A stretch of DNA of 64,000 bases. Origin: Candidatus Aenigmatarchaeota archaeon. Its GTDB lineage: Archaea; Aenigmatarchaeota; Aenigmatarchaeia; QMZP01. Of this stretch, positions 6,282-52,370 are shown piece by piece. Within the stretch, counting starts at the first letter, position 1. Every line of letters begins with the position of its first letter. Below the pieces are notes generated by a model. That model was not told where the DNA came from. It did not search any database and worked only from the letters and a program-made list of their open reading frames with translations. The stretch is taken from contig JBDRSV010000005.1 of assembly GCA_043824495.1 (NCBI GenBank), positions 64,001 to 128,000 of the forward strand, written 5' to 3'. The position numbers and the translations under genes are program-made.

Positions 6282-7244
6282 TTACTCAGACATCTGTTTC
6301 AAGCCCGTTCTACCTTGATTGAGCCAGTATTCATTTTCTTCAGTATTATCACCTTCTCCGACTTTCTCATAATTAGCTCTTATTACATGCATTGCGTGAG
6401 CAAGTTTTATGTATGTAGGAAGAACTTCTAATTCTCTTGGTGTTAGTTCAATGGATTTTTGATATTCATCTAGAGCTGTATTGAGATTTGCTTGGCTTTT
6501 CTCTTTACTTTTTTCATCGAAAAGAATATTACAAGCCATTACAGATAGCTCTTGTATACGAGGATAATAGTTTGAGACTGCAAAATCAATGATCCAGATC
6601 TTGTTATTTTTGTCTTTCATTACATTTGTTGCAATGAAATCCCCATGAACAAAACAGTGAGGTAGCTCTTCTATATTCATGTTCTTGAATTCTTCTATTA
6701 GAGGTTCTATTGTTTGTTTATCTTCAGAAGAGAGGAAATCTCCTTTCTTTTCGTATTCTTTGAGTATGCTTGTGATAGCCCAGGAATCATATACAAATTC
6801 TGGATTGATAGTCATACTGTTTGTGAGAGCAGCTTGACGAGCTAGTTCTCTAATTTCTTCTTCTGCAGGCTTAGTTTTCAGATTGAAATAATCTTTACCA
6901 TCTATGAATCGCATGACTACAAGTCTGATTCTAGTGCTATGGACATCTGTTATGTGTAGATAGCCTTGGTCAGATTTGTATAATTTTGGGAAAGAAATAT
7001 CATTTTCTATTACTTTGAGCATGACATCAACATATCTCCGACAATCTTCATCCTTTCTGAAATTGGAGAATGTTTTGATGAAGTATTTGCCTTTTGTCGT
7101 TTCTATGATAAAGTTGAAATCTTCATATCCTAGTTCTATGAGCTTGTCTGATTTGAATTCTCCGAGATTGAAGTCCTTACAAATAGCTTTGGAAATATCA
7201 GATAGTTCTCCTTCATAACCTATTCTTGTGTAGAATTGTTTCAT
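6282..7244 (-). CDS. Aminoglycoside/homoserine kinase type II-like phosphotransferase
   Basis: GYEDFN, HGDFIATN and IIDFA kinase motifs. Start taken as MKQFY at 7244; the track starts it at 7271. Confidence 0.85.
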   Translation of the reverse strand: MKQFYTRIGYEGELSDISKAICKDFNLGEFKSDKLIELGYEDFNFIIETTKGKYFIKTFSNFRKDEDCRRYVDVMLKVIENDISFPKLYKSDQGYLHITDVHSTRIRLVVMRFIDGKDYFNLKTKPAEEEIRELARQAALTNSMTINPEFVYDSWAITSILKEYEKKGDFLSSEDKQTIEPLIEEFKNMNIEELPHCFVHGDFIATNVMKDKNNKIWIIDFAVSNYYPRIQELSVMACNILFDEKSKEKSQANLNTALDEYQKSIELTPRELEVLPTYIKLAHAMHVIRANYEKVGEGDNTEENEYWLNQGRTGLKQMSE

Positions 7245-7254
7245 AATATTCTTC

Positions 7255-8208
7255 TTATAAAGCCACCACATTGTCTGGGTTGCCTTTCAGATATGTTCTT
7301 ATATCATTTAGAGTTGTTTCTCTTAGTCTTTGTTGGGCTTCTTTTGTCATCCAGCCAAAGTGTGGCGTGAGATAAATGTTGTCTAGGGCTCCGAACTTAT
7401 CTCTTATGTCCTTTTCTTCTATTGCTTCAAACCAGGCAGTAAGTTTCTTCTCTTTACAAAGATTATATACAACATTCAGGTCAACAAGTTCTGATCTTCC
7501 TGGATCAAGTAAAACAGCACCTGGTTTCATGAGTTTTAATTTTGATTCAGTAAGAATTTTTTCTGTATCCTTGTTCAAGGAGCAGTTTAAGCTTACAACG
7601 TCACTCTCTCTTAATAAGTCGTCGAGTTTAGTATATTTCATGCCCTTTGTATCTAATTCAGGTTTTTTTGTACGAGAATAGTGCATTACATTCATCCCGA
7701 GACCCTGGGCAATCTCTGCAACTCTGGTTCCTATTCTTCCTATTCCAATAATTCCTAATGTTTTGCCTTTGAGTTCCCAGCCCATAAAATTTTCAAAACC
7801 CCAGTTACCTTGTTTGACAAAAGTCATTGCGTCGTGAGTTTGTCTTGAAATATTCAGGAGTGCTGAAATTGTTAGTTCTGCAACTGCCTCAGAAGAATAT
7901 CCAGGGACGTTTGCTAATATTATACCATTCTTTTTTAGCAGGTCTAGATTGAAGTTGGAATAATCAGTATGAGTTGTGACTACATATTTCAGCGTTCCCT
8001 GTGTGAACACACCATCTTCATAGAAATCAAGGAGTCGTGTTACTAAAGCATCTGCTCCTTTCATATGTTCTGGTTTCAGAGATCTTGTATATTCTTTTTC
8101 AGCAAAAACAATCTCTACTACATCAGCAAACTCTTTGAGTTTATTAACAAACTCTTTTTCAAGAGGTTCTACACTTAAATCATATAATATGAGTTTTTTG
8201 AATTTCAT
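7255..8208 (-). CDS. D-2-hydroxyacid dehydrogenase family protein
   Basis: NVPGYSSEAVAE, GIIGIGRIG, LLDPGR and TPHFGW. Confidence 0.9.
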   Translation of the reverse strand: MKFKKLILYDLSVEPLEKEFVNKLKEFADVVEIVFAEKEYTRSLKPEHMKGADALVTRLLDFYEDGVFTQGTLKYVVTTHTDYSNFNLDLLKKNGIILANVPGYSSEAVAELTISALLNISRQTHDAMTFVKQGNWGFENFMGWELKGKTLGIIGIGRIGTRVAEIAQGLGMNVMHYSRTKKPELDTKGMKYTKLDDLLRESDVVSLNCSLNKDTEKILTESKLKLMKPGAVLLDPGRSELVDLNVVYNLCKEKKLTAWFEAIEEKDIRDKFGALDNIYLTPHFGWMTKEAQQRLRETTLNDIRTYLKGNPDNVVAL

Positions 8209-8702
8209 TTTCTGAAAAACTCCTTTGTGATGTCTTTTCTGGTGTCTATGTAGTTTCCTTTGATATCACTTTCTGAAGTGACCCAGATTTTCTCTGGAGT
8301 GAATTTGAAAACTCTTCTAGGGAAAACGCCTAAAAATTCTTTGGTTGATCTTGGTTTTTTCTTTTTTCTTTGGTAGTGGAGTTTTAGAGCCTTAATAATT
8401 TCTATTATATCCTTTTTTTCTAACTGTTTTGCTTTCCCCTTCATGTAGATTCCATAACCCGTTCCTTCAGGAGCTGTTGTATCATAGATTACTGCGAAAA
8501 CTCTTCCATTTTCTATTATATTTTTTGAGTGTTGGTTCTTGTTCCAGGAAAGCCAATAGAAATTATAATTCTTATCAAAGGATGTGTAGACTGGTGAGTT
8601 CCAAGGTTCACCTTTGTTGCTTGATGTTGCAAGAGTTATGTAAATAATCTTGTCTATAACAGCTTTTGCTTGTTTTGTTAATTCTTTGATATTTTTTGTC
8701 AT
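8205..8702 (-). CDS. Pyridoxamine 5'-phosphate oxidase-like FMN-binding protein
   Basis: TLATSSNKGEPWNSPV, HSKNIIENGRV. Confidence 0.8.
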   Translation of the reverse strand: MTKNIKELTKQAKAVIDKIIYITLATSSNKGEPWNSPVYTSFDKNYNFYWLSWNKNQHSKNIIENGRVFAVIYDTTAPEGTGYGIYMKGKAKQLEKKDIIEIIKALKLHYQRKKKKPRSTKEFLGVFPRRVFKFTPEKIWVTSESDIKGNYIDTRKDITKEFFRK

Positions 8703-8752
8703 AATACTAAATTAAGAAAAATACTTAAAAGATTTTATGTTTCAGTGTGGGT

Positions 8753-10447
8753 CTATAAAGAATTAGTACATGCACTGTCTACACAAGTCTGATTTACTGT
8801 ACAATTAGCATCTTCTGTACACTCTGGAGGAGTTGTGTCTTCCACACAAATATTATCTATACATATTTGGCCATCTGCACAACCCGTAGCAATTGTACAC
8901 TCTACATCGGGTATATCTACACATACATTGTCTACACAAGTCTGATTTACTGTACAATTAGCATCTTCTGTGCATTCAGGAGGTTCTTGTTGTTGTGTGC
9001 ATATACCATTTGTGCACCCATATCCTTCTTCACAATCATCGTTTACTGTGCATTCATTCTCGGTTGCATTCACGTCTTTGCCTACAACTCCACTCTTTCC
9101 AATAACTGGTAGCAAATTGTATCTGTTTGTGTTTCCTCTTTTAACAACGTTTATGTCAAATACAAATTTTGTTGTTTCTCCTGCTACAATTCTGAAAGGT
9201 CTTACTATTTGTAATTTGTTGCTTGGAACCTGCACTTCAACTGTTTCACCGTCCACAACACCATCGACATCAGAAACATGGAGTTCAACTTTTGAGTATG
9301 ATCCCTCTTCTAAGTTGATGTTTAAAATTGAGATTGCTTGTTCTCCAATTACCTGAGTAAGATCAACCGATGTTCCATTCAAGTCAAATTCTTCAAAACC
9401 TTCGTTGAAAACTCTTGCTTTTGAGAAAGTAACTATAAGTGCATCAAAATCTCCTATATCAGCTTCTTTATCAGAGACGAATAGGTTGAAGTTTCCTCTT
9501 TCGGTTCCCATGCCTCTGATTATATCATCTACATTCTGTTTTACATCATCTGGGATGTTTTCTGGTATGTTGCCTAAGTTATCTGCTTGTTTCAATGTCT
9601 CAATTACCCTTTCCCTTTCTTGAGTAGAAATCTGCAATGCGTTTTGTATTGCATTCTTGGCTTGTTCTGGTATATTTTCATAACCATAAACCATGCTAAG
9701 AACTTCTGCATGTCTGGTAGTTGCCTGAGCTACAAGCTGATCAACTGTAGTTGTGTCTTTTCCAATTGTCTTTGCAATTTCTGATATTCTGTTTGTTTCT
9801 GTCAGTCTGTTGGTGTATTCATTAAGGTCGTCATCAACATCAAAATCGCCACCAACAGCTCTTATTCGAACTCTTTCTAATTTCTTGTCAGCTATTCTAA
9901 ATTGAATTTCAGCGGCTCTTTCTGGTCTTTCTCTCTCCAGGGCTGCTAAAGCTGCTGTATTCCCTGTTTCAGAAGCTTGTAAGGCTCTTTGTATTCCTGT
10001 TCTTGCCTGTTCCGGTACTTTTTCAAGAATACCCGCTAAAATATCATTATGTAATGATGTTGCAACTGCAACACGTTCTCTGACTTCTGTTGTGTCTCTT
10101 CCAGCTGCTTGGACCGTCTGAGCTATTTCATTTGCTTTCACTATGTTCTGTTCATATTCATCTACCAAATTATCTACAAATTCAGGTTTGTTTTGTTCAG
10201 CCATTGCTTTGGCTTCTGCTAATCTCATTTCTGCAGATCTTATGTGTTTTCCTGCTCTTGCTACGTCATCAAAAGTAAATGCAAAATCTACACTCTCAAA
10301 AAACCTTCCAAAACCATACATGAAAGAGTCTGGAGTATTACCAACCTCTGGTAAGCCTTCTTCAAATGCTGTTGGTAAATCTATTGCTGCTACTGATTGG
10401 ATTGATGCTAACATGACTATTGTCAAGAGAATAGCGTATACTTTCAT
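8753..10447 (-). CDS. Secreted protein: DUF5667-like helical domain, DUF4382-like beta domain, Cys-rich tail
   Basis: Signal peptide; PDSFMYGFGRFFE...AEMRLAEA; FNLFVSD...VDLT...YSKVELHV...VPSNKLQI; repeated CxxDxxCxxxQxCVD. Confidence 0.75.
   Translation of the reverse strand: MKVYAILLTIVMLASIQSVAAIDLPTAFEEGLPEVGNTPDSFMYGFGRFFESVDFAFTFDDVARAGKHIRSAEMRLAEAKAMAEQNKPEFVDNLVDEYEQNIVKANEIAQTVQAAGRDTTEVRERVAVATSLHNDILAGILEKVPEQARTGIQRALQASETGNTAALAALERERPERAAEIQFRIADKKLERVRIRAVGGDFDVDDDLNEYTNRLTETNRISEIAKTIGKDTTTVDQLVAQATTRHAEVLSMVYGYENIPEQAKNAIQNALQISTQERERVIETLKQADNLGNIPENIPDDVKQNVDDIIRGMGTERGNFNLFVSDKEADIGDFDALIVTFSKARVFNEGFEEFDLNGTSVDLTQVIGEQAISILNINLEEGSYSKVELHVSDVDGVVDGETVEVQVPSNKLQIVRPFRIVAGETTKFVFDINVVKRGNTNRYNLLPVIGKSGVVGKDVNATENECTVNDDCEEGYGCTNGICTQQQEPPECTEDANCTVNQTCVDNVCVDIPDVECTIATGCADGQICIDNICVEDTTPPECTEDANCTVNQTCVDSACTNSL
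8776..8971. repeat. Exact 43-bp intragenic duplication (8776..8818 and 8929..8971)
   Basis: tgtctacacaagtctgatttactgtacaattagcatcttctgt occurs twice and encodes TEDANCTVNQTCVD. Confidence 0.9.
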
Positions 10448-16287: not shown

Positions 16288-19200
16288 CTAGCAAGTAGGT
16301 TCAGGTGCACCTGCAAACAAGTGGTCAATCATAATTGCTAGATCAAGAGCTGTTGGGAAACCATCTCCGTCCAGATCAGCTATCCATGGAGGATCAGGTA
16401 ATGGGTGTCCAGCGAATAGAATGTCAATCATGATTGCAAGGTCAAGAGCTGTTAAGAAACCATCTTTGTCCAGGTCGCCGCAAATATCTAGAGTAGAGAT
16501 TTCAAGTTCTCTGAAATTTATGTCATAATTTCCATTTTGATCTGTAGCTGAAATCGCATACAAATACTCGTCTCCTATGGTACCTTCAACATTCCAGCTT
16601 ACAATAACTGAAGTGCCTGGATTGATTGATCCTAGAGGCTGTGAGATTGGATCTATTACAAAAAAATCATCACTTATATTCAAGGAAGCGACAGTGTTGA
16701 TGAGAGTATAATCTCCGAGATTTGTTATTTCAGCTGAGATTGTGGTTGTTTCACTTACTTCTGGAGATTCTGGAAAATGCATCATACCACTTACTTGAAT
16801 AACTGGAGGCGATAAGACATCTATTCCTTCTACTATTGTCTTGAATCCGGTGTCAGATGAATCTGCTGCTAAAACAAAGTTGTGTTCGCCTGAGTGTATT
16901 ATTTTCATAGGAATATTAGCTACATCTGTTTGTCCTGCTGACAGGCTTGATATGGCATATGTAACATCAGAAGTGGCATAGAACGGTGTTATTAGTCTCA
17001 CTTCTATATCATTAATTTGTGATCCTAGTAGATTTTCAACTGAAACAGTTGCAGTGAAAGTCTGATTCACATCTACTACTAAAGGGATTGTGAGTGTCAC
17101 ATCAAGACCTGGGTCAACTGTGAAGAAGGAGAGGTCAAAACAATCTTCGGTAGTTGTTGTTACTTCAAAATCTCCGTTATCAACATAATCTGTACTTGTG
17201 ATTATAAAGCTCTTGGAAACTGAGCTAGAAGGCGGTATGGTAAGACTATCAAAGTCATTTAAGATTAAAATTTCGCTTGGTATTGTGTGCTGTGGAGCAA
17301 ATTGGACAGTCTCTTCTATTAGAGGTGTTCTTACATTTATTTCTGAATTCACGTTTTGTGTAATTGCTCCATTGTTCTGGAATTCAATTGTCAAATTCAC
17401 ATCTTCTCCGAAAATATAATCTGATTTGTCTGTAGATGTTGTGATGGTAAGATCACAGGAGTTTAGGCTTGAGAATGATTTTGGAGGCATAGGAGGCGTG
17501 GGTTTTGATGTATTATATTCTTTTATAAGACTTGTCTTATTTCCTGTGTTAGGATCTTGAGTAACTGGAGCAGCTGTAGGTCTTCCAGTTCTTGGTCCAC
17601 CTTCACAAGAATGATCTCTCCAATAGTCCTCTTGTGTTACACCTGTGTCTTCGTAGCCACCAGTTGCATCTAGAATCAGCCACTGAGTTCCATTCCAGTA
17701 TTCTGCCCAGCAGTGATAGTTCCATAAGCTTGTAGCAGTTTTTCTAACCCATTGTCCTGTAACAGCCCTTGCTGGAATATTCTCTGCTCTGAGTTTACCA
17801 ACCAGAACCATACAGTTATCACTACATTCGCCATCTGCCCAGCCGCTTGGACCTGTTGATCCATTTGAGTGAGCTAATAAAGCATTTAGGTATGTTTTAA
17901 TGTTTGCATAACAACCGTTTCCGTAAGTTGTATGCTCAGTTACCCATTCTCTCTTTTTCTTTGCAGCATCATCCTCGTCTGTCGTTCCATTTTCAATCTC
18001 ATTTATTTCTCTAGTATACAGCGCATTATAAATATCAAGTTGTACTACTCTTCCAATCTCTCTAGCAGGGCTCCATCTTGTGTCATAAAGTGACTCGTTT
18101 GTTCCGTGTTTCCATTGCAACCACTCTGCATTTGACCAGCTTGCAGGTTTCGTCATACTGAAAATAACTGTAAAATCTCTTGTTATGTCTATTGTGTCTA
18201 TTCCATTGGTTATTGAAATTGTAGCGGTGTATTTACCAATTGGTCCAGCAGCAGATGTTGAGATCTTGAAAACTTCGTAATGAAATCCTTCTGGTGCAAT
18301 TAATTTTTTCTTGCTTAACACCTCGGTTGCATTCAGTTTGTTACCTAAAGAATCAACAACAGTTATGTTTTTAGCTGATAGGTTGTTTCTTTTCACAATA
18401 TAAATATAGACATCTTCTCCTCTCCTGTAAGTTGTAGCTTCATATCTCTTGTCATTGTTTGCAACTGTGACACTTATCTCGTTCAGTATCAAAGGTGTGA
18501 CAGCATTCACTCTAATGTCAAAGAAAATATTATCAAAGCCACCAAAATTATCATCCACCAAAACCTCAATAAAATAATCCCCAGCATCTCCAATACCTGT
18601 CTGCCAGAAAAAGTCTCCAGTAATAGGATCTATTACTGGACAATCCAAAACTCCACATTCAGCTTGTGTTAGTGAATAAGTGACAAGATCGTCTCCGCAT
18701 ATTTGCATGTCTAAGTCAACTGCATTGGCAGAAGTAAAAGCGAAATCTCCTTCGTTAATTGTAATGGTGGAAATTGGATCTAGTTCTGGAAGCCTGTTGA
18801 TATTAAGGACGTTTATAGAAACGTCTGAAGATCCTAGAGGAACATAACATTCTTGGCCTGCTTCAGAGGTAAATATATAATATTCAGACTGACAGTTATT
18901 AGGAGTCCAAGTAAATGTGCCTTGAACTTCTCCTGGAGCTGATACTGTTGGATAAGTTGCTCCTGGAGGTAAATTATTTGACCATGTGCAAATAGGTAGT
19001 GCTGGGTTTGGAGGATTCCATCCCCAAGTCATATAAAATTCAAGTAGCTCTCCTTCTTCTACATCACAAAAACATTCTCCAAAATTCACACATTCTGGCT
19101 CTTCAAAGTTACAATAATACTGAGCGTCTTTGTTTGATGAATCGGATGAAACCATGCTTTGTATAGAAGATGGTATAGGCTCAATTTGTAATGTATTTTG

Positions 19201-19353
19201 AGAACCTGAAGTTATTATTAGATTTTTTGTCTCTTCTGTAAAAGAAATTCGACCTGGTTTTTGAGTAAGCTCAATTGCATTTATGGTACCCATAGCTAGA
19301 ATTATTCCAAGAACCAAAGACACAACAATTGTAATTTTCGTTGCAGCTAGCAA
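16288..19353 (-). CDS. Secreted transglutaminase-like protein with Ig-like domains and a C-terminal dockerin-like domain
   Basis: GECSDNC...NIPARAVTG...YHCWAEYWNGTQWLILDAT (Cys-His-Asp triad); paired EF-hand-like DLDKDGFLTALDL / DLDGDGFPTALDL. Confidence 0.85.
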   Translation of the reverse strand: MLAATKITIVVSLVLGIILAMGTINAIELTQKPGRISFTEETKNLIITSGSQNTLQIEPIPSSIQSMVSSDSSNKDAQYYCNFEEPECVNFGECFCDVEEGELLEFYMTWGWNPPNPALPICTWSNNLPPGATYPTVSAPGEVQGTFTWTPNNCQSEYYIFTSEAGQECYVPLGSSDVSINVLNINRLPELDPISTITINEGDFAFTSANAVDLDMQICGDDLVTYSLTQAECGVLDCPVIDPITGDFFWQTGIGDAGDYFIEVLVDDNFGGFDNIFFDIRVNAVTPLILNEISVTVANNDKRYEATTYRRGEDVYIYIVKRNNLSAKNITVVDSLGNKLNATEVLSKKKLIAPEGFHYEVFKISTSAAGPIGKYTATISITNGIDTIDITRDFTVIFSMTKPASWSNAEWLQWKHGTNESLYDTRWSPAREIGRVVQLDIYNALYTREINEIENGTTDEDDAAKKKREWVTEHTTYGNGCYANIKTYLNALLAHSNGSTGPSGWADGECSDNCMVLVGKLRAENIPARAVTGQWVRKTATSLWNYHCWAEYWNGTQWLILDATGGYEDTGVTQEDYWRDHSCEGGPRTGRPTAAPVTQDPNTGNKTSLIKEYNTSKPTPPMPPKSFSSLNSCDLTITTSTDKSDYIFGEDVNLTIEFQNNGAITQNVNSEINVRTPLIEETVQFAPQHTIPSEILILNDFDSLTIPPSSSVSKSFIITSTDYVDNGDFEVTTTTEDCFDLSFFTVDPGLDVTLTIPLVVDVNQTFTATVSVENLLGSQINDIEVRLITPFYATSDVTYAISSLSAGQTDVANIPMKIIHSGEHNFVLAADSSDTGFKTIVEGIDVLSPPVIQVSGMMHFPESPEVSETTTISAEITNLGDYTLINTVASLNISDDFFVIDPISQPLGSINPGTSVIVSWNVEGTIGDEYLYAISATDQNGNYDINFRELEISTLDICGDLDKDGFLTALDLAIMIDILFAGHPLPDPPWIADLDGDGFPTALDLAIMIDHLFAGAPEPTC

Positions 19354-19479: not shown

Positions 19480-19746
19480 TTACCAACCACAAAGCATCTT
19501 CTTCTCAGCGTGACTTAGGGTTTTGATCTTCTCTTTGAGACTATGAGCTTCTTTTCTTGTTTTACACACATGAGACCATACTAAACGGACAATACTAGGT
19601 CCGCTCTTTTTATTCTCTTTTTTCTTGTAGTTTAGATTTTCTATATGAGAACTCATCTCAGTTAGGATATTTGATGTGTCTCCTACGTAGAAATTAGTGA
19701 ACTTTCTGTCTTTGTAGCATTTTAACATGTACACCCAGTAAGTCAT
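19480..19746 (-). CDS. Small GIY-YIG nuclease family protein
   Basis: YWVYMLKC...FYVGDT...EA...E..IK.L; the usual Arg is not evident. Confidence 0.7.
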   Translation of the reverse strand: MTYWVYMLKCYKDRKFTNFYVGDTSNILTEMSSHIENLNYKKKENKKSGPSIVRLVWSHVCKTRKEAHSLKEKIKTLSHAEKKMLCGW

Positions 19747-19945: not shown

Positions 19946-22900
19946 TTACATACATGTCCATGTGTTTGTGTACTTATCATATTCACAGTCAGTTCCTTGG
20001 TCACCGTTTCCAGTGCTTGGAGATTCATCTGGTGTTGCAGTTATATACTCCCAATTAGTTTCACATCCATATAATGCATTACATCCCCTTACAGCAAATT
20101 CATATGTATTGCTAGGGTTTAGACCATTGAATTCAACTTCATTTGGATAATCTTTATCAGGTAACGGTCCTGTTACACTCCAGGCGTCACCAACTTTTCT
20201 CATCTTAACCTCATAAATACTTGCTCCTCTACTACCCCAAGTAAGCTTTACTGACCAGATATCAGTTGTTGCAATTATGTTATTAACTGATGGTATGACT
20301 GATCCTTGGTTAAGTCCCTTTTTAATTGAAATATCATCTATGTAATTGAATGGTTGTGCATATCCTCCTCTGCTGTTTATATTTGTTTTTACTGTTCCTG
20401 GGACATCATCTGACAAGCTATTCCCACTATGGAAATCACATGAATATTCAGCCCAGTCGCTTGTTGGGTAGACTTCACATCGCATAAGATTTTTCCATGG
20501 ATTTGGAGATTCAGGTCTTCGTCTCTCTACCCAGAATAACTGAGTTGATCCATTTAAAGGATCTCCTTTCTTTGCCCAGAAAGAGAATGCATAATCTGTG
20601 TCTGCTTCAAGTACAATGTCGTGTTGCCATGGCTCCCAACTATTTACACTCTGCACGCAATAATCTCCTGTATGGCAGTCTGTATCTACACCATCTTCTG
20701 CTATGAATGCTGAATCATCTGCAGGTTCATTTACCCATCCCCAGTTCTCTACGTTATTACCATTTATTGTTTCAAATCCATGGTTCAATACATAATTCTG
20801 CTCAACAGTGAATGTTCCTGGAGTAGCAGCAGAACAATCGCCTTGTGAGTCACAAACAAATGCATAATACTGGTTAGTTCCAATATCATCTTCTGTTGTT
20901 GTGTAAATGCATGTGGAAGGACTTGTACCATCTAGAGATGATTCACACCAATCACCGCCTGTACAAAAAGCAGGTGCTCCAGGAGTGATAGCATTTGTTC
21001 TGCAAATATGAGCTCTTACCAAATCGGTTGGGTTATCGTCTGTCCAATCAGTAGTAAATGTAATAACTTCTCCTATGCTTACACTATTAGGATTTTCTGT
21101 AACGCCTACAATTGTAGGAACAATATTTAACTGTAAGAATTCATTCTCAACTATCATGTTACCCATTATATCATATACATAGTGATAGATAGCAACTATT
21201 TGTCCTGACGCCACATCTTCTACAGCCCTTCTAACTCTTAATCCGCTATAATCATAATCATAATACTCTTTTATGCCCTGTCCTGTTAAGTCTGCAGCTG
21301 CCATTCTATTTTCAGGATCATAAGTGAATACAGCTGATATACAATCAGGTTCTCCTGAACATACTTTTGTTTGTAGATTACCTCTCTCATCATACTGCAT
21401 GTTTATTACTGGAACACTTGCTGAAAGTACTTGTTTAAGTGCTTGACTGCTTCCACTAACCTCAAATGCATATTGGTATGTTTTTGTTGGTTCTCCTGCT
21501 CTTGTTTCATCTTGTCTGTTCCCTGCCTTATCATAATTATATGTCGCTTCACCAAATGGTGTATCTTCATAAACTAACCTATGTACATTATCATATCTGA
21601 ATTCTTTGTTTGGTTGTCCAGGTGATGTAATTGTCTCCACATTACCTACGTCATCATGTATGTATGACTCAGAAAAGTGTGTTGTTCCTAGTTTTGTTGT
21701 AACTACATCTGTGACCCAATCTCTACTTGGATGATAACTATAATCTGTTTGAACCGTGTTACCAAATGTTACCAAGTCCATTGTTCCTGTTGGGTTGTAT
21801 ATGATAGACGCAGAAAATGTTCCGTCCTCAATTCCTTCAACTTGACCAAATGCATTGTAAATATAACTAACTGTTACACCGCCTTCAGGATAAGTAATTG
21901 TTCTTATGGAATCTGATTCAGTGTATGTATATGTTGTTGTATATGTTCCTTCATTCATGATGTTTTTTGTTATTGAATCTAGTCTACCAAAACTATCATA
22001 ACCTAGTGTAGTTATTATTACATTGCTTCCAGATCCTTCTGTTATTGTGCAAAGTTTTCCAGAATGACATACATCATAAACAAAAGTCACATCCCTCCAA
22101 GGAGAAGGGTAATTTATTGTTTTTAATCTATCTAATTCATCATAAGTATATGTCATTGTAACGGTTCCGTGTGTTTTTGTTCTAGTGTTTCCATGATCAT
22201 CGTATGTGTAACCAATTGATCCAATATCTGGATTGGCAAATGCACTTAGTCTGTGTAGGCTGTCATAACCATAATCTGTTAAATGATTTTCAGCATCTGT
22301 GATGGTATCTATGTTATCAACTGCTGTATATAAAAAATCATTTTCATAATCGTAATTATTTCCATCTGTTGAGTTCTCTTTTAGAGTTACTATGTTTCCC
22401 CAACCATCAAAAGAAGACATTTTCCATTTATTTTCTTCATCCATTACCTTTGTGTATTCTTTTCCAGAACTATCTATACCATGATTTGTCTGAATCGTTG
22501 TAGAATCAGGGTTTGTTATTGTTGTTATTCTGCTTAAAGGGTCTCCAGCAATATATGAAAATACTGTACCTGCACCTGCAGTTTCTCCTGTTGCAGTTCT
22601 ATGAGTAGTTTGTATTCTTCCAGAAGTATCATAATCTGTTTGTGTGTTTATCTTTTTTGTTGCGTCTCCTGCATCTTGTATGACAGTTTTAAAATTTCTT
22701 CCATGTGCATCATAATATGATGTAGTAGTTGCATCCTTACCAGCAATAGAATCAATTATAGAAGTTGCTGTTACTGTTTCAGGTCCACTTTTTGATATGT
22801 CATATGTGTAAAGTATGTCCGGATTTTCACTAGTTCCCTCTTGTATAGCTTTCCACAATCTTCCATAGTTATCATATTCATATGTTGTTGTTGCGCCACC

Positions 22901-23752
22901 AAATGGTGTTATTGTTTTTGGTTTTCTCAATTCATTATCCCATGTATAACTTGCTGAATAACTGCCGGGTCCTGTTTCTGATTGGAGTAATCCATCTGTA
23001 GTGTAACCATATGTAACTGTTTGACTCATTGCATCCTCTCCTGTGCCGCCTTCTGTTGCAAGTATTTTTGGTGGGATAGTCATACTCAATGGCTGGCTAA
23101 AACTGTTATATTCCCCATAAGTTGTGGTAATCCATCTAATATCATCTGCATAATAATCCTGCGTTGTTTCAGGAACTACTCTTTCAAGATCATATAAATT
23201 ACAATTCCTTGTTTCGTCTGGCTTATCAAATGTGGTTCCACAAGTATCTGGATCTACATCAGTGCAGGTTCTTGTTTGTTGACCTAATGTGCATGCTCCC
23301 CAATTTGTACATTGCCAATCTTCAGGGCAAGGACAGTTGTCATCTAATGGATTTCCAGGAGGATATTTATCTTGGCATGCACCCCATGTAGTTATACTAA
23401 AACCCAAAAAATTTCCTGGAATACATTGCATTTGACCATTACATATCTGATCATTTGCCTCATAACTACAATCAGCAGTTGCTCCTGGACTAGCACATTC
23501 ACAGTTAAATGCTGGAACTCCTATTCCTTGAAAATTACTAGGACATGTTTGAGGTGTCCATCCACCGGAAGCACATGTTTGTGTTCCATAACATTTTACT
23601 GCAGCACCAAGACATGTGGGCGTTATATCACCATTTACGTCATAGCATGTGGTGCATGTATCTGTACTACCTATCTGACAAAAAGCGTCTGATGTATTGG
23701 TTAACATAGCTAAAACAAATACTGTAACTAATATTGTATATATTATTTTCAT
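19946..23752 (-). CDS. Secreted YD-repeat (RHS middle) protein with Cys-rich leader and C-terminal Ig, CBM-like and FN3 domains; lacks the RHS core
   Basis: Signal peptide; many YD units (YEYDNYGRL, YGYDSLHRL, YTYDELDRL, FTYDPENRM); YD run ends at YDIMGNMIVENEF; VLNHGFE...YIDDISI; GLNPSNTYEFAVR. Confidence 0.9.
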   Translation of the reverse strand: MKIIYTILVTVFVLAMLTNTSDAFCQIGSTDTCTTCYDVNGDITPTCLGAAVKCYGTQTCASGGWTPQTCPSNFQGIGVPAFNCECASPGATADCSYEANDQICNGQMQCIPGNFLGFSITTWGACQDKYPPGNPLDDNCPCPEDWQCTNWGACTLGQQTRTCTDVDPDTCGTTFDKPDETRNCNLYDLERVVPETTQDYYADDIRWITTTYGEYNSFSQPLSMTIPPKILATEGGTGEDAMSQTVTYGYTTDGLLQSETGPGSYSASYTWDNELRKPKTITPFGGATTTYEYDNYGRLWKAIQEGTSENPDILYTYDISKSGPETVTATSIIDSIAGKDATTTSYYDAHGRNFKTVIQDAGDATKKINTQTDYDTSGRIQTTHRTATGETAGAGTVFSYIAGDPLSRITTITNPDSTTIQTNHGIDSSGKEYTKVMDEENKWKMSSFDGWGNIVTLKENSTDGNNYDYENDFLYTAVDNIDTITDAENHLTDYGYDSLHRLSAFANPDIGSIGYTYDDHGNTRTKTHGTVTMTYTYDELDRLKTINYPSPWRDVTFVYDVCHSGKLCTITEGSGSNVIITTLGYDSFGRLDSITKNIMNEGTYTTTYTYTESDSIRTITYPEGGVTVSYIYNAFGQVEGIEDGTFSASIIYNPTGTMDLVTFGNTVQTDYSYHPSRDWVTDVVTTKLGTTHFSESYIHDDVGNVETITSPGQPNKEFRYDNVHRLVYEDTPFGEATYNYDKAGNRQDETRAGEPTKTYQYAFEVSGSSQALKQVLSASVPVINMQYDERGNLQTKVCSGEPDCISAVFTYDPENRMAAADLTGQGIKEYYDYDYSGLRVRRAVEDVASGQIVAIYHYVYDIMGNMIVENEFLQLNIVPTIVGVTENPNSVSIGEVITFTTDWTDDNPTDLVRAHICRTNAITPGAPAFCTGGDWCESSLDGTSPSTCIYTTTEDDIGTNQYYAFVCDSQGDCSAATPGTFTVEQNYVLNHGFETINGNNVENWGWVNEPADDSAFIAEDGVDTDCHTGDYCVQSVNSWEPWQHDIVLEADTDYAFSFWAKKGDPLNGSTQLFWVERRRPESPNPWKNLMRCEVYPTSDWAEYSCDFHSGNSLSDDVPGTVKTNINSRGGYAQPFNYIDDISIKKGLNQGSVIPSVNNIIATTDIWSVKLTWGSRGASIYEVKMRKVGDAWSVTGPLPDKDYPNEVEFNGLNPSNTYEFAVRGCNALYGCETNWEYITATPDESPSTGNGDQGTDCEYDKYTNTWTCM

Positions 23753-26700
23753 TATTCATACACCTTATATTCTGTTTTTGTTAAAAGTCCACCTGGGCTA
23801 TTTATTTGTGAAGGTAGTGTGAGCATGAATTTATTGGATAGTCTATCTTTAACATTTGTATCTGGATCAGAGGCGAATGCGTATGAGATTGATGTAGTTT
23901 TTGCTGCTCCGCTTGAAGGTGTTAGAGTTGTGCCTGTAGACAATATGATTGTTTCATGTGGTAATTGGCCTGTTCTTGCGAAAGAGGCATAAGAGTAAGA
24001 TATTGAAGATATTGATGTATAAGATGGGTTCGTCCAATCGTATAATTTTGTAGTTGTGGAATCTGGTAAATCAATTGTTTTCCAGAAAAGTGCTGTTCTT
24101 GTGTGATCGTAAGCCGGATCTTCTACAGTTATTGGACCAGTTTCAAATTCATTATTAGAATAACTACCTCTAGCTACTGATACTTCTTTAACCAATCCGA
24201 GTGTTGTGTCTCCAGTAAAACTACCAGTAGATTTGTAATATCTTACAAGTTCTGGATATCCCATGAAACCATCATTCTTATCTGGGATTAATGTGGCTGA
24301 TTGTTTTCCTGGGATATTCTCACACCAACGTCTGGAATTATGATAAAAACACAAAAAACTCCCACTGAAAACAGTTGATTGCTTACCACTTGATTCAAAT
24401 TGATCAGTAGAGTAATATGTTATTATGTGTCCTATCCCACCTGGTAAGGTTAGTTTAGTTTTTGGATAATAGACAAATTCACCTACATCATCAAATGAAC
24501 TTGGAAGGAAGTAATAATCACCAGTAGCAGACAGTCTTTCTTGTACAAATTTATCTGGTATTCTATTTATATTACCTGCGTCTCCTATTCCTGATTCAGC
24601 TAAGTAGTCTTGTGTATATACATATGAATCCCCTGAAGGATCCTCAACCGTTGTTGAGATGAGCCTTGCCCCGCCCATTCTGTATATATATTGACCATCA
24701 TTGTCTTGGAATACTGTATTACCTCTAGTATCTACAATATTGAATTGTTGATTGATTTTATGTGTTTCGTAATTATATGTGACTTTCAGTCCTGTTGGAT
24801 AGCTTATTTTATACAGACTCCAAACCTCTGCATCTGCTAGATCTACACCTGCGAATGCCCCTTCTGAATCTAAATTCATCCCATCTGGATTTGATGTGTA
24901 ATATCCAAATAAGTCTCTATAATCATATAAACTTGTCCTACTACATCCTGGTAATAATGCTGGTCCAGGATTATATGCAAACTCATAAGGTTCCAGAGTA
25001 TCAATAGCAGTCTTGCCCTGGACGTTTATTTGTGTGAGCATTAATTTGCTTTGATGAGTTCCATCCGGTATTGTGTTTCCAGCATCATTATCTATACATA
25101 CAGTAGGACTGTATTCATTTATTCCACTAGCTAGATTATTATTCTGGTTATAGACGAAACTAATAACATTTAATGTTGAACTTTTTGATAGTGTGATTGA
25201 GTTAAGATGTTTGGTTGCCTCTTTACTACCTCCATCACTATTATAATCTATCTCATATTCTGATAACAAATAATTAGCTGGTGTTGCAACACCATCACCT
25301 ACAAAAGTAAATGTTGCAGTGTGACCACTGGATGTTGTTACTGTATTTGGATATGCAATCTCTCTATATATAACTCTACTATCAGGACCAGTTCCATCAA
25401 AATCATAATGATAATCAACTACATCATAATTAATTGCTATCCAACTGCCTGCATTGTTTCCATCTGTTGGATCAAGTACATTCCCTGCACTATCCCTGTA
25501 GCCAGGAGAGAGAATTGCTGTTAATTTCCATTCCATAGCTCCTTTAGGAGAAGCTGGTAATCTTGATACATCTCCATTGTCATAGGCATCTACATAGGAC
25601 TCTTTTACTGGTTGATTGTAAACAAATTTTGTTCCATCTGCTGTGATTAGGACAAATCCATCATAATCATATCCATACTGGACTGTTTTTGTTGTTCCCA
25701 ATATGTTTAATCTGTATGGTGTATTAGCACTTTTTGGTTCGAATTCTGGATTCTCTACTGTTCCAAAATTAAAGAATTTATCTCCCCCGCTTGGGAATGT
25801 AACATACATTGCATCTCCTACAACATCAGCTCTTGTATGAGAATATGTGGTTGGTTCAATTGTATCTTCTCTACAATCATTTGGACAAGCAGATGTTGAA
25901 CCCATCAGATCATTAGCACCATCATAACTCTCTCCAAATTCACATCTCCCATTATTATTACAGGAGCCAACCGCTACTGCAGCACAATCGCTTGGAGCAC
26001 AATAATAATTCTCTCCTCCACCTACTGTTGTCTGACATGTTCCATCAGAAGTGCTTGGAGTTTGACTCCAACAATCTAAATTACAATTAAACCATGTTTC
26101 ACCAATGTCACATACTCCATTACCACAACCTTGTGTACAAGTTGAATCAATAAAACAAGGTGCGGATTGAGAACATTTAGTAAGATCGACATTTCCAGAT
26201 GCACAGTATATTGCCTCACAATCATTCCCATCATAACATTCACTGGAAAAACAAACTTCTTCATTATTGACACCATATGTACTTACACTACAAGATCCCC
26301 AATAATCTGGTGTCCAGCAACTTCCGGCCTGGTCTTTGCATGGATATTCACCATCATCTTCATCACCGGGACCACCAAAATAACAATCAGTATCATCTTG
26401 TAGTTGTGGACAAACTTGATCTTGGCCAACAGTTATTTTTGGCCAACACCATCCATAATTAGTATTAGGATTAAAACAAGGGCGATCTATATTAGGGCAA
26501 GCATCTGAATCATCAGACGTGCCCCCTGTACACTGTTCTGCTTCACAATTGTGATTCCAATTGGTACAATCTAAACCGCCTGGATTTATGTTTGGCGGAT
26601 CGCATGCAGGAACACCGCCTTGTAACCCACCTGGATGTGTTTGATATTCACCACATTCACAAATATTATCACTTGCAGATGTTGTTCCAGTACAATCTTT

Positions 26701-27096
26701 TGGACATGTATTATGAGTTTCAGGACCGTTACAAATCTGATCTCCACAAGATGTTGAACCTCCTTTTGCTGTGTCGTGGTAATCTACCAAATTCATTGGG
26801 ATTCTTCTTATTGAGCCTAGATCTAAGTTCCACCCTAAACCTATAATAGAATGAAGCTGATCCACTTTGATACCTGATTCATAATGAGCAACTATTGGTA
26901 ATGATAAACCGCCAGTAGAAGGAACATCCATCAAAGGAAGATCAAGATTCAAATCACCTGTAAAAGATGATCCGCCTCTTTCATAAGGAGTGATTTTAGT
27001 GGGTTGGGGAGGAGTTACTGTAGAAGCAGCCGGACTCACTAATAGAAACATACACAAAAAAACTACAATTATAATTGTCGTAATTTTATTTAACAT
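23752..27096 (-). CDS. Secreted SpvB/TcB-like RHS N-terminal module with a large Cys-rich insertion
   Basis: Signal peptide; SSFTGDLNLDLPLMDVP...GLSLPIVAHYESG...IGLGWNLDLGSIRR; SLYKISYPTG, MGGARL; 1-bp overlap with the next gene. Confidence 0.8.
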   Translation of the reverse strand: MLNKITTIIIVVFLCMFLLVSPAASTVTPPQPTKITPYERGGSSFTGDLNLDLPLMDVPSTGGLSLPIVAHYESGIKVDQLHSIIGLGWNLDLGSIRRIPMNLVDYHDTAKGGSTSCGDQICNGPETHNTCPKDCTGTTSASDNICECGEYQTHPGGLQGGVPACDPPNINPGGLDCTNWNHNCEAEQCTGGTSDDSDACPNIDRPCFNPNTNYGWCWPKITVGQDQVCPQLQDDTDCYFGGPGDEDDGEYPCKDQAGSCWTPDYWGSCSVSTYGVNNEEVCFSSECYDGNDCEAIYCASGNVDLTKCSQSAPCFIDSTCTQGCGNGVCDIGETWFNCNLDCWSQTPSTSDGTCQTTVGGGENYYCAPSDCAAVAVGSCNNNGRCEFGESYDGANDLMGSTSACPNDCREDTIEPTTYSHTRADVVGDAMYVTFPSGGDKFFNFGTVENPEFEPKSANTPYRLNILGTTKTVQYGYDYDGFVLITADGTKFVYNQPVKESYVDAYDNGDVSRLPASPKGAMEWKLTAILSPGYRDSAGNVLDPTDGNNAGSWIAINYDVVDYHYDFDGTGPDSRVIYREIAYPNTVTTSSGHTATFTFVGDGVATPANYLLSEYEIDYNSDGGSKEATKHLNSITLSKSSTLNVISFVYNQNNNLASGINEYSPTVCIDNDAGNTIPDGTHQSKLMLTQINVQGKTAIDTLEPYEFAYNPGPALLPGCSRTSLYDYRDLFGYYTSNPDGMNLDSEGAFAGVDLADAEVWSLYKISYPTGLKVTYNYETHKINQQFNIVDTRGNTVFQDNDGQYIYRMGGARLISTTVEDPSGDSYVYTQDYLAESGIGDAGNINRIPDKFVQERLSATGDYYFLPSSFDDVGEFVYYPKTKLTLPGGIGHIITYYSTDQFESSGKQSTVFSGSFLCFYHNSRRWCENIPGKQSATLIPDKNDGFMGYPELVRYYKSTGSFTGDTTLGLVKEVSVARGSYSNNEFETGPITVEDPAYDHTRTALFWKTIDLPDSTTTKLYDWTNPSYTSISSISYSYASFARTGQLPHETIILSTGTTLTPSSGAAKTTSISYAFASDPDTNVKDRLSNKFMLTLPSQINSPGGLLTKTEYKVYE

Positions 27097-27295
27097 CAGT
27101 AACCTCTAAGCCATATATAATCACTCACCGTAAGCTTTATATTCGTTTAGTATTCACTGATCACGATATCTTTATTGAATTGTCAATTTCCTCTCATTTT
27201 TCCAGAAAACCAGTATACAAGAAGGAAGGAGAGAAATAGTTATTTAAATCTTTCCCCCAACTTTTAAAAAGCAATAACAGCATCAGGAGAATCGT

Positions 27296-28564
27296 TTGAC
27301 CAGATCTCTTACATTAAATTTTGGGGATAGGAAAAAATTGTTAGCTGTAATTATAATTGCTTTTTTTGTTCTTTTCGTTTCCTTCAGTTCAGGATACGCA
27401 AGAGATTCCAACTTGATAAAATCAGTTGAAAAAATAAAACCTGTAAAACCAATAGATTCAAGGTTACAACTAGAAACTACTACGTCAACAGCAGTTAATA
27501 TACCTGGTTTTGAAAAAACTAATACTGTTTTTTTCTATACGGGTATCAAGAAAATAGCAGAAAAAACTAATGGTGTATTAAGCTATGCTCACGATGATAA
27601 CGTAGGGAATCTAATTTTGAAAACTGACTCTTTAGGAAATGAGCAACCAGGTTCAAGAGTTTCATACGATGCGTTTGGTTCAGCTGACTCAGATGACGCT
27701 AGTTACACTGGACATCTACTTGACAATGGAATCGGGATGTATTACATGAAATCAAGGTATTATGATCCTGATATTGGACGATTTATTAGTGCTGATTCTG
27801 TACCAGGTGACATAACAGATCCACAGTCATTAAATAGATATATTTACGTCACCAATAGACCAACAATTAACATAGATCCAAATGGAAAGCAACAATTCCC
27901 TAGTAATATTATAATTACTGGAGCAGACTCAGTTGAACAAGTTATGATTAGGGGCTCTTTGTATAGTGTACCCGATAGCTTCTTTAGCCCAACATCTCCT
28001 ACACCTGATACTATATATTTACATGTATCAGACTCGCTGGGTGGTGGTGCAACATTTACCACAGCTGGAAGCTACGGTCAGTTTACAGATAGTGCTAGTA
28101 TTCTACGTGATTTTTTGTTTAATGAAATAATTGATACTAGTGTAGTAATTCCACTTAGCGTGCCTTATGTCATAGATACAACTAAAGAAGTAGGTGCAGA
28201 AGGCGAAAGATTTTTAGTGCATGAATTGTATGCCCATTTTGGAGATAAGCCTTCAACTGACACTCTTCACACAGAAGTTAAATCTGCAATGGCATACATA
28301 GATGCTAATAATTTTATCTCTTCAGATTCATTGGCAAGAGATTCTTTAAGACAAGCAATATTAGTAATCTATGACGATTTACATACTGATGAAGCTAAAG
28401 CATATGATAAAGAACGCAACTTCGCAATTTATCAATTTAACCAAGGAAGAATAGATTCTACTACTTTATCTAGGGTATTACGAGAAACGGCATTTGATAG
28501 TGCAGCTACTGTTAACAGAGCAGATAGTCTAGGAAATTATTGGTTCAATCAAATTCCATATTAG
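27296..28564 (+). CDS. Secreted RHS-associated core protein with a putative metallopeptidase toxin tip
   Basis: AGGAG plus TTG start; signal peptide; YDAFG...YTGH...MYYMKSRYYDPDIGRFISAD...LNRYIYVTNRPTINIDPNG; tip contains HELYAH. Confidence 0.9.
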   Translation: MTRSLTLNFGDRKKLLAVIIIAFFVLFVSFSSGYARDSNLIKSVEKIKPVKPIDSRLQLETTTSTAVNIPGFEKTNTVFFYTGIKKIAEKTNGVLSYAHDDNVGNLILKTDSLGNEQPGSRVSYDAFGSADSDDASYTGHLLDNGIGMYYMKSRYYDPDIGRFISADSVPGDITDPQSLNRYIYVTNRPTINIDPNGKQQFPSNIIITGADSVEQVMIRGSLYSVPDSFFSPTSPTPDTIYLHVSDSLGGGATFTTAGSYGQFTDSASILRDFLFNEIIDTSVVIPLSVPYVIDTTKEVGAEGERFLVHELYAHFGDKPSTDTLHTEVKSAMAYIDANNFISSDSLARDSLRQAILVIYDDLHTDEAKAYDKERNFAIYQFNQGRIDSTTLSRVLRETAFDSAATVNRADSLGNYWFNQIPY

Positions 28565-28566
28565 AA

Positions 28567-29055
28567 CTATAGACTTTCGTCGTCGTCATCGAGACTCATT
28601 TTAAATATGCCAATTAAATATTCATCTACTGCAACTATGATTCTATTACCATCAACATCAACTCTTTCTACGTATCCTCCAGATAGCTCTGGTGGGTAAA
28701 AAAGAGTGTATGTAGCAGTAGGATCTGATAAGAAGCTTGTTAAAGAGTCAATTGTTTTTGTTGGGTCAATATTAGGTTGTTTTATTACTTTACCATCCTG
28801 TGTCACTAAAGAATCTATAATATTTATGTTTGTTCTTGAATAAAGATCATTTGCGCGTTTTGCATAAAGGTTTAAATCTTCTGTAACAGCACCTGGATCA
28901 AGAGGAGCAGAATTGGTAGTCTTACCGTATTGGGAATTTATGCTATCATTTGTATTTGGGTCTGAATTTACATCTTGACATGCAGGCGTAACTACCAGAG
29001 CTCCAGCTATTGTAGTTGCAATTAGTTTATCAATCATCCTATTTCTATATCTCAT
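28567..29055 (-). CDS. Putative lipoprotein convergent with the RHS core gene (candidate immunity protein)
   Basis: Hydrophobic leader ending VTPAC; stop codons 2 bp apart. Confidence 0.5.
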   Translation of the reverse strand: MRYRNRMIDKLIATTIAGALVVTPACQDVNSDPNTNDSINSQYGKTTNSAPLDPGAVTEDLNLYAKRANDLYSRTNINIIDSLVTQDGKVIKQPNIDPTKTIDSLTSFLSDPTATYTLFYPPELSGGYVERVDVDGNRIIVAVDEYLIGIFKMSLDDDDESL

Positions 29056-29170
29056 AATAAAATCTTAAAGGGGAGGGTTTAAATAGATTTTTTACGCTTT
29101 ATACTGTGGTCTTTCCTTATGAAATCATATACTCTGAGAATAAATGTTCAATTGAACTAATACAATAGAT

Positions 29171-51242: not shown

Positions 51243-52370
51243 ATGATTATGCGAAAGAGGAGGGGTATTACACCCATTATAGCTATAATTATTCTATTAC
51301 TGATCACAGTTGCTTTAGGCGGAACAGCATGGACATACATGTCTGGTATGGTTGATATATACACACAGAATTCAATAGAAATATCACAATCCAATGCATT
51401 TTGTAATAATAATGTAGTTAATGTTCTAGTAAGAAATATGGGAACAGCTCCCGTACAGCTAACAACAACCCCTGTCCCATTCCAAGAATATGCTCCAGAT
51501 GATAATACAGTATTACTTTATCATTTCAATGAGAATGCAGGAACAAGTACTGTAGATTCTTCAACAAGTGGAAATGACGGAATTCTTGAAGGCACAACAT
51601 TACCTGCGTGGTCTCCTGGTGTCTTTGGTAGCTCACTTCGATTTCCAGGTCACCCTACCCAAAGTGATGTTCGTAATGGTAGCTTTGCTGATGGTGCAAC
51701 AAATGTGCCTTCAGGGGATAACCCAATAACTTATGAGGCTTGGGTGTTTTTGTATGAATATCAAACGGACATAATTTCTATACCTGGAGCTACTGTTGTA
51801 GGATATGATTATTTTCAGCCAACAGCATTAACAATAGAAAATGATAAGCTTCTTTTTGTCACATATGATGGTGGTTTAAATTTAATTAATTATTCGCATT
51901 CAAGACCACTAGAATTAGAAAAGTGGTATCATGTAGCTGGGAGTTATGTTCCTGGAGCAACACCTGTAGTTAGGTTGTACGTGAACGGAGAAATGGAAGA
52001 GTTTACTGCAATTAACATCCCTATTGCTCCAAATTATCATATAGTATCTGTTGGAAGTTTACTTGCTACTGGATCACCAGTTTATACTATTAATGCAACC
52101 ATAGATGAAGTCAGAATATCCAATATAACAAGAACATTCTCAGGTTCTGAGTTTGTTGCGGCATGCGATTATTTAGGTTCTGCATTTGATTGTGGTGGGT
52201 TGAAAATAGAAAGAGTAAAAGGAACTCATGTTTATCCATTCCCATATCTTGATAGCAATGTATTGGACACTGGAGATTCTGTCAGGATAAGAGATAATTG
52301 TCAAGGTAAGTGCGAATACGTAGTTACATCTGGTGGAGTAGCAAAGGAAATTAATTTGGATTGTTTCTAG
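51243..52370 (+). CDS. Archaeal type IV pilin-like protein with LamG domain
   Basis: RRG/ITPIIAIIILLLITVA class III signal; LLYHFNENAG, ITYEAWV, WYHVAGSY, RLYVNG, IDEVRISN. Confidence 0.88.
   Translation: MIMRKRRGITPIIAIIILLLITVALGGTAWTYMSGMVDIYTQNSIEISQSNAFCNNNVVNVLVRNMGTAPVQLTTTPVPFQEYAPDDNTVLLYHFNENAGTSTVDSSTSGNDGILEGTTLPAWSPGVFGSSLRFPGHPTQSDVRNGSFADGATNVPSGDNPITYEAWVFLYEYQTDIISIPGATVVGYDYFQPTALTIENDKLLFVTYDGGLNLINYSHSRPLELEKWYHVAGSYVPGATPVVRLYVNGEMEEFTAINIPIAPNYHIVSVGSLLATGSPVYTINATIDEVRISNITRTFSGSEFVAACDYLGSAFDCGGLKIERVKGTHVYPFPYLDSNVLDTGDSVRIRDNCQGKCEYVVTSGGVAKEINLDCF

Follow-up and report, generated by a model that had tools for sequence, protein, structure and literature searches.

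This report concerns the window, a 64,000-nucleotide stretch of a Candidatus Aenigmatarchaeota archaeon genome (contig JBDRSV010000005.1, positions 64,001 to 128,000), and three neighboring genes within it. These genes probably encode an encapsulation cage of the Tc-BC/RHS type, cut into three Sec-targeted chains and accompanied by a candidate immunity gene. Chain A (P0001; 23752-27096, minus strand; 1114 aa) resembles the first, SpvB/TcB-like half of the shell; chain B (P0002; 19946-23752, minus strand; 1268 aa) is the second half, made of YD repeats and devoid of an Rhs core; and chain C (P0003; 27296-28564, plus strand; 422 aa) carries a leader or anchor, the last YD hairpins, the Rhs core, and an orphan tip. 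In the prevailing picture, RHS and Tc cocoons enclose the toxin at their own C-terminus as they fold, as one chain or as two chains made together in the cytoplasm. If the present reading is correct, that picture would change, since core plug and toxin form an exported protein of their own and the shell too is divided: closure and loading of the cage could then take place in trans, and possibly outside the cell.

The three chains tile a single known cocoon. On the TcdB2-TccC3 structure (6h6e_F), the model of chain A covers residues 30-1056 and that of chain B residues 1115-2065 (both by VIA; for chain B, Z 14.9 over 641 residues, root-mean-square deviation (rmsd) 2.8), and chain C covers residues 2039-2153 (by phmmer). 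The breaks fall at about TcdB2 1060-1110 and at about TccC 560-600. Neither is at the TcB-TcC junction, which is spanned by chain B (TcdB2 ~1110 to TccC ~590); the shell portion kept by chain C is only about 50 aa.

Single-chain RHS proteins also locate the second break. On six of them (P0275, P0336, P0310, P0246, P0266, and P0322), phmmer maps chain B residue ~869 and chain C residue ~77 to within 0-10 residues of each other; on other single-chain RHS targets the mapping is shifted by the repeat register. The shell end of chain B reads '...YDIMGNMIVENEF', that is '...YHYVYDIMGNMIVENEF', before its decoration tail, and chain C opens, after leader and linker, with 'TVFFYTGIKKIAEK...SYAHDDNVGN'. 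In the single-chain RHS consensus, the B-end motif 'YDxxGxLxxExD' is directly followed by the chain C opening motif. The first-pass annotation had described chain C as a leader followed by exactly the missing piece: the last YD strands, the core, its DPNG motif, and a tip. With abutting alignments and consecutive consensus motifs, that description is borne out. Sequence comparison and structural models together support the reading of A, B, and C as consecutive pieces of one TcB-TcC-type cocoon.

Chain A comprises a Sec-type leader (residues 1-25), an SpvB-like N-terminal segment (25-110), an insert of 310 aa with 36 Cys (about 111-420; window 25837-26766), and the first half of the predicted β-cocoon (421-1114). 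Zero matches were returned for it in Pfam, NCBIfam, or PDB sequence searches. Its kinship comes from other sources. An exhaustive representative search yielded 531 relatives, and many of the proteins found, 800-2,500 aa in length, resemble residues 25-110 of chain A at their N-termini; the longer relatives go on into DUF6443 and RHS repeats. PF03534 (SpvB) was found in two of the homologs scanned (P0088 and P0091), chain A itself lying below Pfam detection. The AlphaFold2 model is good at 40-110 and 423-1100, with the Cys insert unmodeled (pLDDT <35), and its top Foldseek matches are YenB and TcdB2 (E 7e-11 to 1e-9, prob 1.0). VIA aligns model residues 42-1114 on TcdB2 30-1056/1092 (Z 12-14, about 500 residues, rmsd 3.9), gives Z 12.4 over 234 residues against the SpvB N-domain (6p0x), and assigns the body a predicted β-cocoon fold with Z 12-17. 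The proposal that chain A is the SpvB/TcB-like start of a shell therefore stands, on the YenB/TcdB2 and 6p0x matches and on PF03534 in its homologs. As for a β-propeller, chain A has no FG-GAP, VCBS, or TcdB_mid match, with only ~500 of ~1,030 TcdB2 residues aligned and the Cys insert unmodeled. A search with chain A across the phylum (371 genomes) found almost no match past the N-terminal segment; its close relatives are in other assemblies. The closest, P0084 and P0085 (848 and 843 aa; 43-45% identity), are without the Cys insert and have the identical end point, so that the chain does not break off at an arbitrary mid-repeat position, as had been supposed.

Chain B begins with a leader (1-23) and a 20-Cys leader domain (24-189), continues with the second cocoon half (190-871; window 21140-23185), and ends in a tail (872-1268) with a CBM_4_9-like region (about 20420-20800), an FN3-like region (about 20075-20245), and a terminal Cys loop. 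RHS/YD repeats are detected by PF05593 (E 1.3e-11) and by TIGR01643 (YD_repeat_2x; E 1.7e-8); Pfam and NCBIfam profile searches find no Rhs core. The model of residues 190-900 (pLDDT 84, pTM 0.78) has its final shell strand ending at ~871, and its predicted fold matches Rhs, teneurin, and Tc shells with VIA Z 15-21, including whole shells of type VI secretion system Rhs proteins at Z ~20 (19-21 when teneurin-like shells are counted with them). What had been noted of its own leader, Cys-rich leader domain, YD repeats, and stop before the core holds. The supposed Ig/CBM/FN3 cap fared less well: its Pfam scores are below threshold (CBM_4_9, 24.5 bits against a cut-off of 25.9; fn3, 19.9 against 25), and to speak of adhesive domains on the cage was an overstatement. 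A similar terminal Cys loop closes chain B in the window (19946-19990, minus strand; CEYDKYTNTWTCM) and in locus L051, described below (16600-16645; CGFDKRTGMMACK); the window chain has a 400-aa decoration inserted ahead of it. The shared loop may represent a C-terminal motif conserved for sorting or for disulfide formation.

In chain C, the leader or anchor (1-35) and a linker precede the YD hairpins and the Rhs core aspartyl autoprotease (~75-198; window 27518-27889). TIGR03696 (Rhs_assc_core) matches residues 124-197 (E 9e-18), and residues 89-199 align to the end of TccC3, that is, to its last shell strands and aspartyl-protease core (phmmer against PDB, E 5.6e-5). Across 38 aligned core-tip proteins, D167, N187, P189, D194, and G197 never vary; DPNG occupies residues 194-197. 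The core is thus intact yet sits on a separate 422-aa protein, not on the shell polypeptide. It is also the sole Rhs core in the window genome (80% complete), in which RHS repeats occur only in chain B: one core and one shell, as neighbors. Chain C has 0 cysteines, in comparison with 41 in chain A and 38 in chain B.

Each chain has its own start. Leaders were judged from sequence by a positively charged n-region, a hydrophobic core of 14-16 residues, and small residues at −3/−1. All three chains open with these features (AAS|T, SDA|F, and GYA|R) and are read as bearing putative Sec signals; the chain C leader is possibly a signal anchor instead of a cleaved signal. (In L051, the core-tip protein, at 7205-8938 on the plus strand, has its YD hairpins set apart from the hydrophobic N-terminal segment by a Pro/Ser-rich linker of ~100 aa and a small Cys-rich module, an architecture that points to a membrane tether more than to a signal peptide that is cleaved.) The chain A stop and the chain B ATG overlap by one base (TAATG), with GGTG 8 nt upstream of the ATG; A and B therefore are translationally coupled. 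The TTG start of chain C is preceded by GGAG at a distance of 6 nt and by a TTTAAAT box at ~45 nt. The divergent intergenic region (27097-27295) holds the promoter and ribosome-binding site elements of chains A and C.

A fourth open reading frame (ORF) belongs to this arrangement. It is 162 aa long, converges with chain C (28567-29055, minus strand), opens like a lipoprotein (...VVTPAC), and leaves 2 nt between its end and the chain C stop. An imperfect 23-nt inverted repeat (74%; 27234-27256 and 29070-29092) brackets the pair, each arm being the TTTAAAT promoter box of one of the two genes. The core-tip/small-ORF pair is inverted in the window relative to L019 and L051. An inversion switch was considered and is not supported: the only repeat found is this one of 23 nt, which is the promoter boxes, and the search brought up no recombination site.

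The split is conserved. Comparable layouts with variable tips, sought in other DPANN genomes, occur in at least five further loci from Micrarchaeota and Diapherotrites at 32-45% identity, and core-tip and shell genes are adjacent in at least six divergent loci. L019, in a metagenome-assembled genome (MAG) beside an archaeal ribosomal-protein operon, has a 437-aa leader-core-tip gene, a 162-aa gene in reverse orientation, an 843-aa A gene, and a B gene with leader and Cys-rich domain that is truncated where the contig ends; identity of the 437-aa protein to chain C is 44% and is confined to 62-205. L051-53, from Ca. Norongarragalinales, has a 577-aa core-tip gene, a reversed 268-aa gene, an A gene of 1124 aa with the Cys insert, and a B gene of 1089 aa. 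The same order and orientations (472, reversed 159, 848, and 1561 aa) are seen on the ERZ1292638 contig of Ca. Micrarchaeota. In L021-23, from JGI and ENA metagenome contigs, A (881 aa) and B (1127 aa) are followed by a 206-aa leader-plus-YD piece, a 396-aa leader-core-tip gene, and a convergent 406-aa ORF. Finally, L020, from Ca. Diapherotrites, encodes a natural A+B fusion (P0089), then a 380-aa leader-core-tip gene and convergent small ORFs. In this fusion, chain B residues 206-871 align to 865-1524 at 34% identity; it is coreless, reaches the identical shell end, and then continues into a dockerin. The B chains of the window, L051, and P0233 likewise end with '...Y[VI]YDxxGNxIxEN[ED]F' and diverge afterward. 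Past the shared motif, the decorations of B chains vary: dockerin, LamG, or CBM. The extra piece in L021 (6205-6825, plus strand), which consists of a leader with a few YD repeats and whose gene separates chain B from the core-tip gene, indicates that the number of pieces varies between lineages.

Two points raised by the first-pass annotation can be answered here. The host is archaeal, as proposed, and of the DPANN (Micrarchaeota) type: ribosomal-protein operons of archaeal kind are present in relatives, which bear the names Ca. Micrarchaeota, Norongarragalinales, and Diapherotrites. Moreover, the breaks are not assembly errors, the break points being kept with intact ORFs in loci of 32-45% identity, each piece with its own ribosome-binding site, start codon, and leader.

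Across the phylum, the Rhs core was found in 28 of the 371 genomes, mostly in short ORFs and in about a dozen single-chain proteins of 1,400-2,000 aa. A leader-like N-terminus marks ~17 short core ORFs of this archaeal class (among those fetched), versus 3 of 79 short core proteins generally. One contig (G110:C19) has tandem pairs of leader-bearing core-tip ORFs behind a coreless shell; in another genome (G210), leader-bearing core-tip genes flank two coreless SpvB-RHS-LamG proteins (2,487 and 2,869 aa).

The tips differ between loci. That of the window (224 aa; window 27890-28561) contains HELYAH; those of L019 and L020 contain HExxH; and those of L021 and L051 are without HExxH and different again. 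For the window tip, no Pfam match was found at E up to 1, and Atlas gave weak zincin-like leads, all <0.9 / TM 0.5. Homology of this tip to the HExxH tips of L019 and L020 was rejected (hhalign probability 0.1). A small ORF with a membrane-anchored or lipoprotein-like N-terminus occupies the position equivalent to the 162-aa ORF in L019, L020, L051, and the ERZ1292638 contig. The L019 and L020 core-tip proteins are 31% identical over their full length and have the HExxH tip in common, and their convergent ORFs (L019_162 and L020_178) are homologous (E 3e-5); the small ORFs of the other loci are unrelated. The idea of a swappable cargo gene draws support both from the polymorphism of the tips and from this matched pair. 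By its sequence context the 162-aa ORF, which has no Pfam match at E up to 1, is a candidate immunity protein for the chain C tip, and the single matched pair is consistent with toxin-immunity pairs that may act outside the cytoplasm.

These observations suggest a model, in which we infer assembly in trans and its location, encapsulation, cleavage, toxicity, target, and release. Chain A would close the N-terminal end with its SpvB-like part and form the first half of the β-cocoon. Chain B, coupled to A, would supply the second half, with surface-binding decorations in place of the core. Chain C would supply the last β-hairpins, a core plug with two catalytic Asp, and a polymorphic toxin tip. 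After export, the chain C hairpins would extend the free edge of the chain B sheet, and the core would serve as the plug of a cage that encloses the tip; the tip would then be cut off after DPNG. The decorated cage would be used on the archaeal surface, against or with a contacted host or competitor cell, and the convergent membrane-anchored small protein would protect the producer. More tentatively, and as a possibility less likely than the cage itself, DPANN archaea may export shell halves and interchangeable plug-toxin chains separately through Sec and both assemble and load the cage outside the cytoplasm, on their own surface, for contact-dependent attack or manipulation of a host. If true, this would be the first RHS/Tc-type cage to receive its cargo in trans once secreted, and genome-reduced DPANN episymbionts would possess a modular weapon or a device for interaction with their hosts. 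How DPANN archaea engage their hosts is little known, and the locus offers a concrete, testable candidate.

Several points weigh against the three-chain cage. We know of no experimental precedent for a toxin enclosed by a cage of three separately exported unfolded chains, and the assembly of TcB with TcC is cytoplasmic. On TccC3, the overlap of B with C could be off in register by about one hairpin. The motif in the tip is HExxxH, not canonical HExxH, and the tip has no significant family match. The TcA families PF18276 and PF03538 were not found in the window genome at its 80% completeness, a search in which control genomes were silent too. The distribution of the core-tip genes suggests that their products may act alone: leader-bearing examples lie amid housekeeping genes, far from shells, in L030, L035, L036, L037, and L040; in G210, which has two shells, three or four of the six core-tip genes are linked to neither; and two queries detected no RHS shell in G052 (94% complete) or G208 (65%), despite leader-bearing core-tip genes in both.

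That distribution, with core-tip genes remote from shells, cargo genes in excess of shells, and no detectable shell in two genomes, is what favors the best surviving alternative. Here, chain C is a stand-alone exported or membrane-anchored pro-toxin whose core is only a self-cleaving release module, and A and B form a cargo-less, teneurin-like adhesin that never binds C. We regard this as unlikely, if well short of negligible. The point at which the coreless shell ends and that at which chain C begins complement each other exactly; the adjacency is kept in at least six divergent loci; and in solved structures the Rhs core is a plug inside the shell, while a solitary chain C would leave its ~50 hairpin residues partnerless. 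Moreover, repeat-rich contigs often are lost from MAGs, which makes a missing shell weak evidence.

A second alternative accepts a cage and changes its purpose: a device for host attachment or surface remodeling, which displays or releases a zincin-like protease on the host envelope in episymbiosis, with the small ORF as inhibitor or chaperone. DPANN archaea are episymbionts, B chains bear CBM, dockerin, or LamG decorations, and HExx(x)H motifs occur in the tips of the window, L019, and L020, alongside the zincin-like Atlas leads (<0.9). Polymorphism of the tip between syntenic loci, however, is a hallmark of conflict systems and not of a conserved host-interaction enzyme, and the window tip lacks a significant family match; this alternative appears improbable. 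The last supposes that a single bacterial SpvB-RHS gene, acquired horizontally, was disrupted through mutation or mis-assembly and left these genes as non-functional pieces. It can point to core-bearing single-chain relatives (1,400-2,000 aa) in the same phylum and in bacteria, and is close to refuted by the expression signals and leader of each piece, by break points kept at only 32-45% identity with every ORF intact, and by the chain B leader and Cys domain sitting exactly at the break between A and B, with chain C on the opposite strand.

The surroundings of the locus contain further surface proteins. Just downstream of the RHS operon (window 16288-19353, minus strand) lies the gene for a secreted protein of 1021 aa that combines Transglut_core (E 7e-11) and CARDB with a type I dockerin at its C-terminus; between it and chain B is a stand-alone 88-aa GIY-YIG ORF (19480-19746, minus strand; E 1.5e-7). 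Another dockerin-tagged surface protein, of 1389 aa (59223-63392, minus strand), has dockerin (E 1.4e-15), EF-hand-like, and PKD matches. Dockerin-like modules are present also on the chain B relatives P0089 and P0233. These modules, with the dockerin of the 1021-aa protein, hint at a cohesin-dockerin surface scaffold. Other predicted surface proteins have Laminin_G_3 (51243-52370, plus strand) or DUF5667, DUF4382, and a Cys-rich Dickkopf-like module (8753-10447, minus strand); exported Cys-rich proteins are abundant in the window.

The closest known system is the Tc BC subcomplex: TcdB2-TccC3 (4O9X, 6H6E) and YenB-YenC1/2/3 (4IGL; PMC11067744). Both it and the archaeal locus have an SpvB-like N-terminus; a large RHS cocoon divided among several polypeptides; a C-terminal core containing DPxG and two catalytic Asp; and cargo tips that differ between loci. 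In Tc, moreover, one shell takes cargo subunits encoded elsewhere, as the YenB shell loads C subunits from separate loci, YenC1-3 (PMC11067744), which gives the proposed cage a precedent in this respect. The archaeal version differs in having three chains instead of two; a Sec-type leader on each; Cys-rich inserts and adhesion-type decorations; a convergent immunity-like gene; and an archaeal host. The Tc C subunit contributes ~600 aa of shell, whereas chain C contributes ~50 aa, and here neither a β-propeller family match nor TcA was found.

In architecture, the locus comes closest to the RHS polymorphic toxins of TcdB/TcaC type. Zhang et al. 2012 (PMC3482391) listed a class of these, reported in a few Euryarchaeota, that joins signal peptide, SpvB, β-propeller, RHS, and toxin in one chain; to call Sec leaders on RHS proteins unusual, as had been done for this locus, was therefore too strong. 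The locus shares with this class the signal peptide, the SpvB start, the RHS shell, and a polymorphic C-terminal tip, the putative toxin, and has a candidate immunity gene where the class has an immunity gene. Single-chain relatives of A and B of this type are known (P0091, P0106, P0250, and P0267); in the window, by contrast, the chain is cut into three genes, and putative binding domains replace core and toxin on the shell protein.

Chain C also recalls the classical rhs orphan cassettes: a short ORF with a partial core and a variable tip, next to an immunity gene (for chain C, a candidate one). Classical orphans have no leader of their own, usually no proper start, and are thought to recombine into the main rhs gene. 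Chain C, in contrast, has GGAG and a TTG start, has a leader, lies upstream on the opposite strand, and neighbors a coreless shell. One very AT-rich contig (G207:C6; L026, 1-5761), from a genome of this archaeal class, bears a classical leaderless Rhs orphan array, with four core-tip ORFs alternating with small ORFs; either the classical and split forms both occur in the phylum, or this contig is mis-binned. Among gram-positive bacteria, WapA-type Rhs toxins are Sec-exported, stay at the cell surface, and have an immunity gene; WapA is a single polypeptide with its core in cis, whereas here the core is on a separate chain.

No description of split RHS proteins in DPANN archaea was found in the literature searched, which did not extend to Makarova 2019 mBio on archaeal polymorphic toxins. 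What distinguishes this locus from these systems is the three-way cut at other positions; the minimal, leader-bearing cargo chain; the putative binding domains in the place of the core; and the DPANN host.

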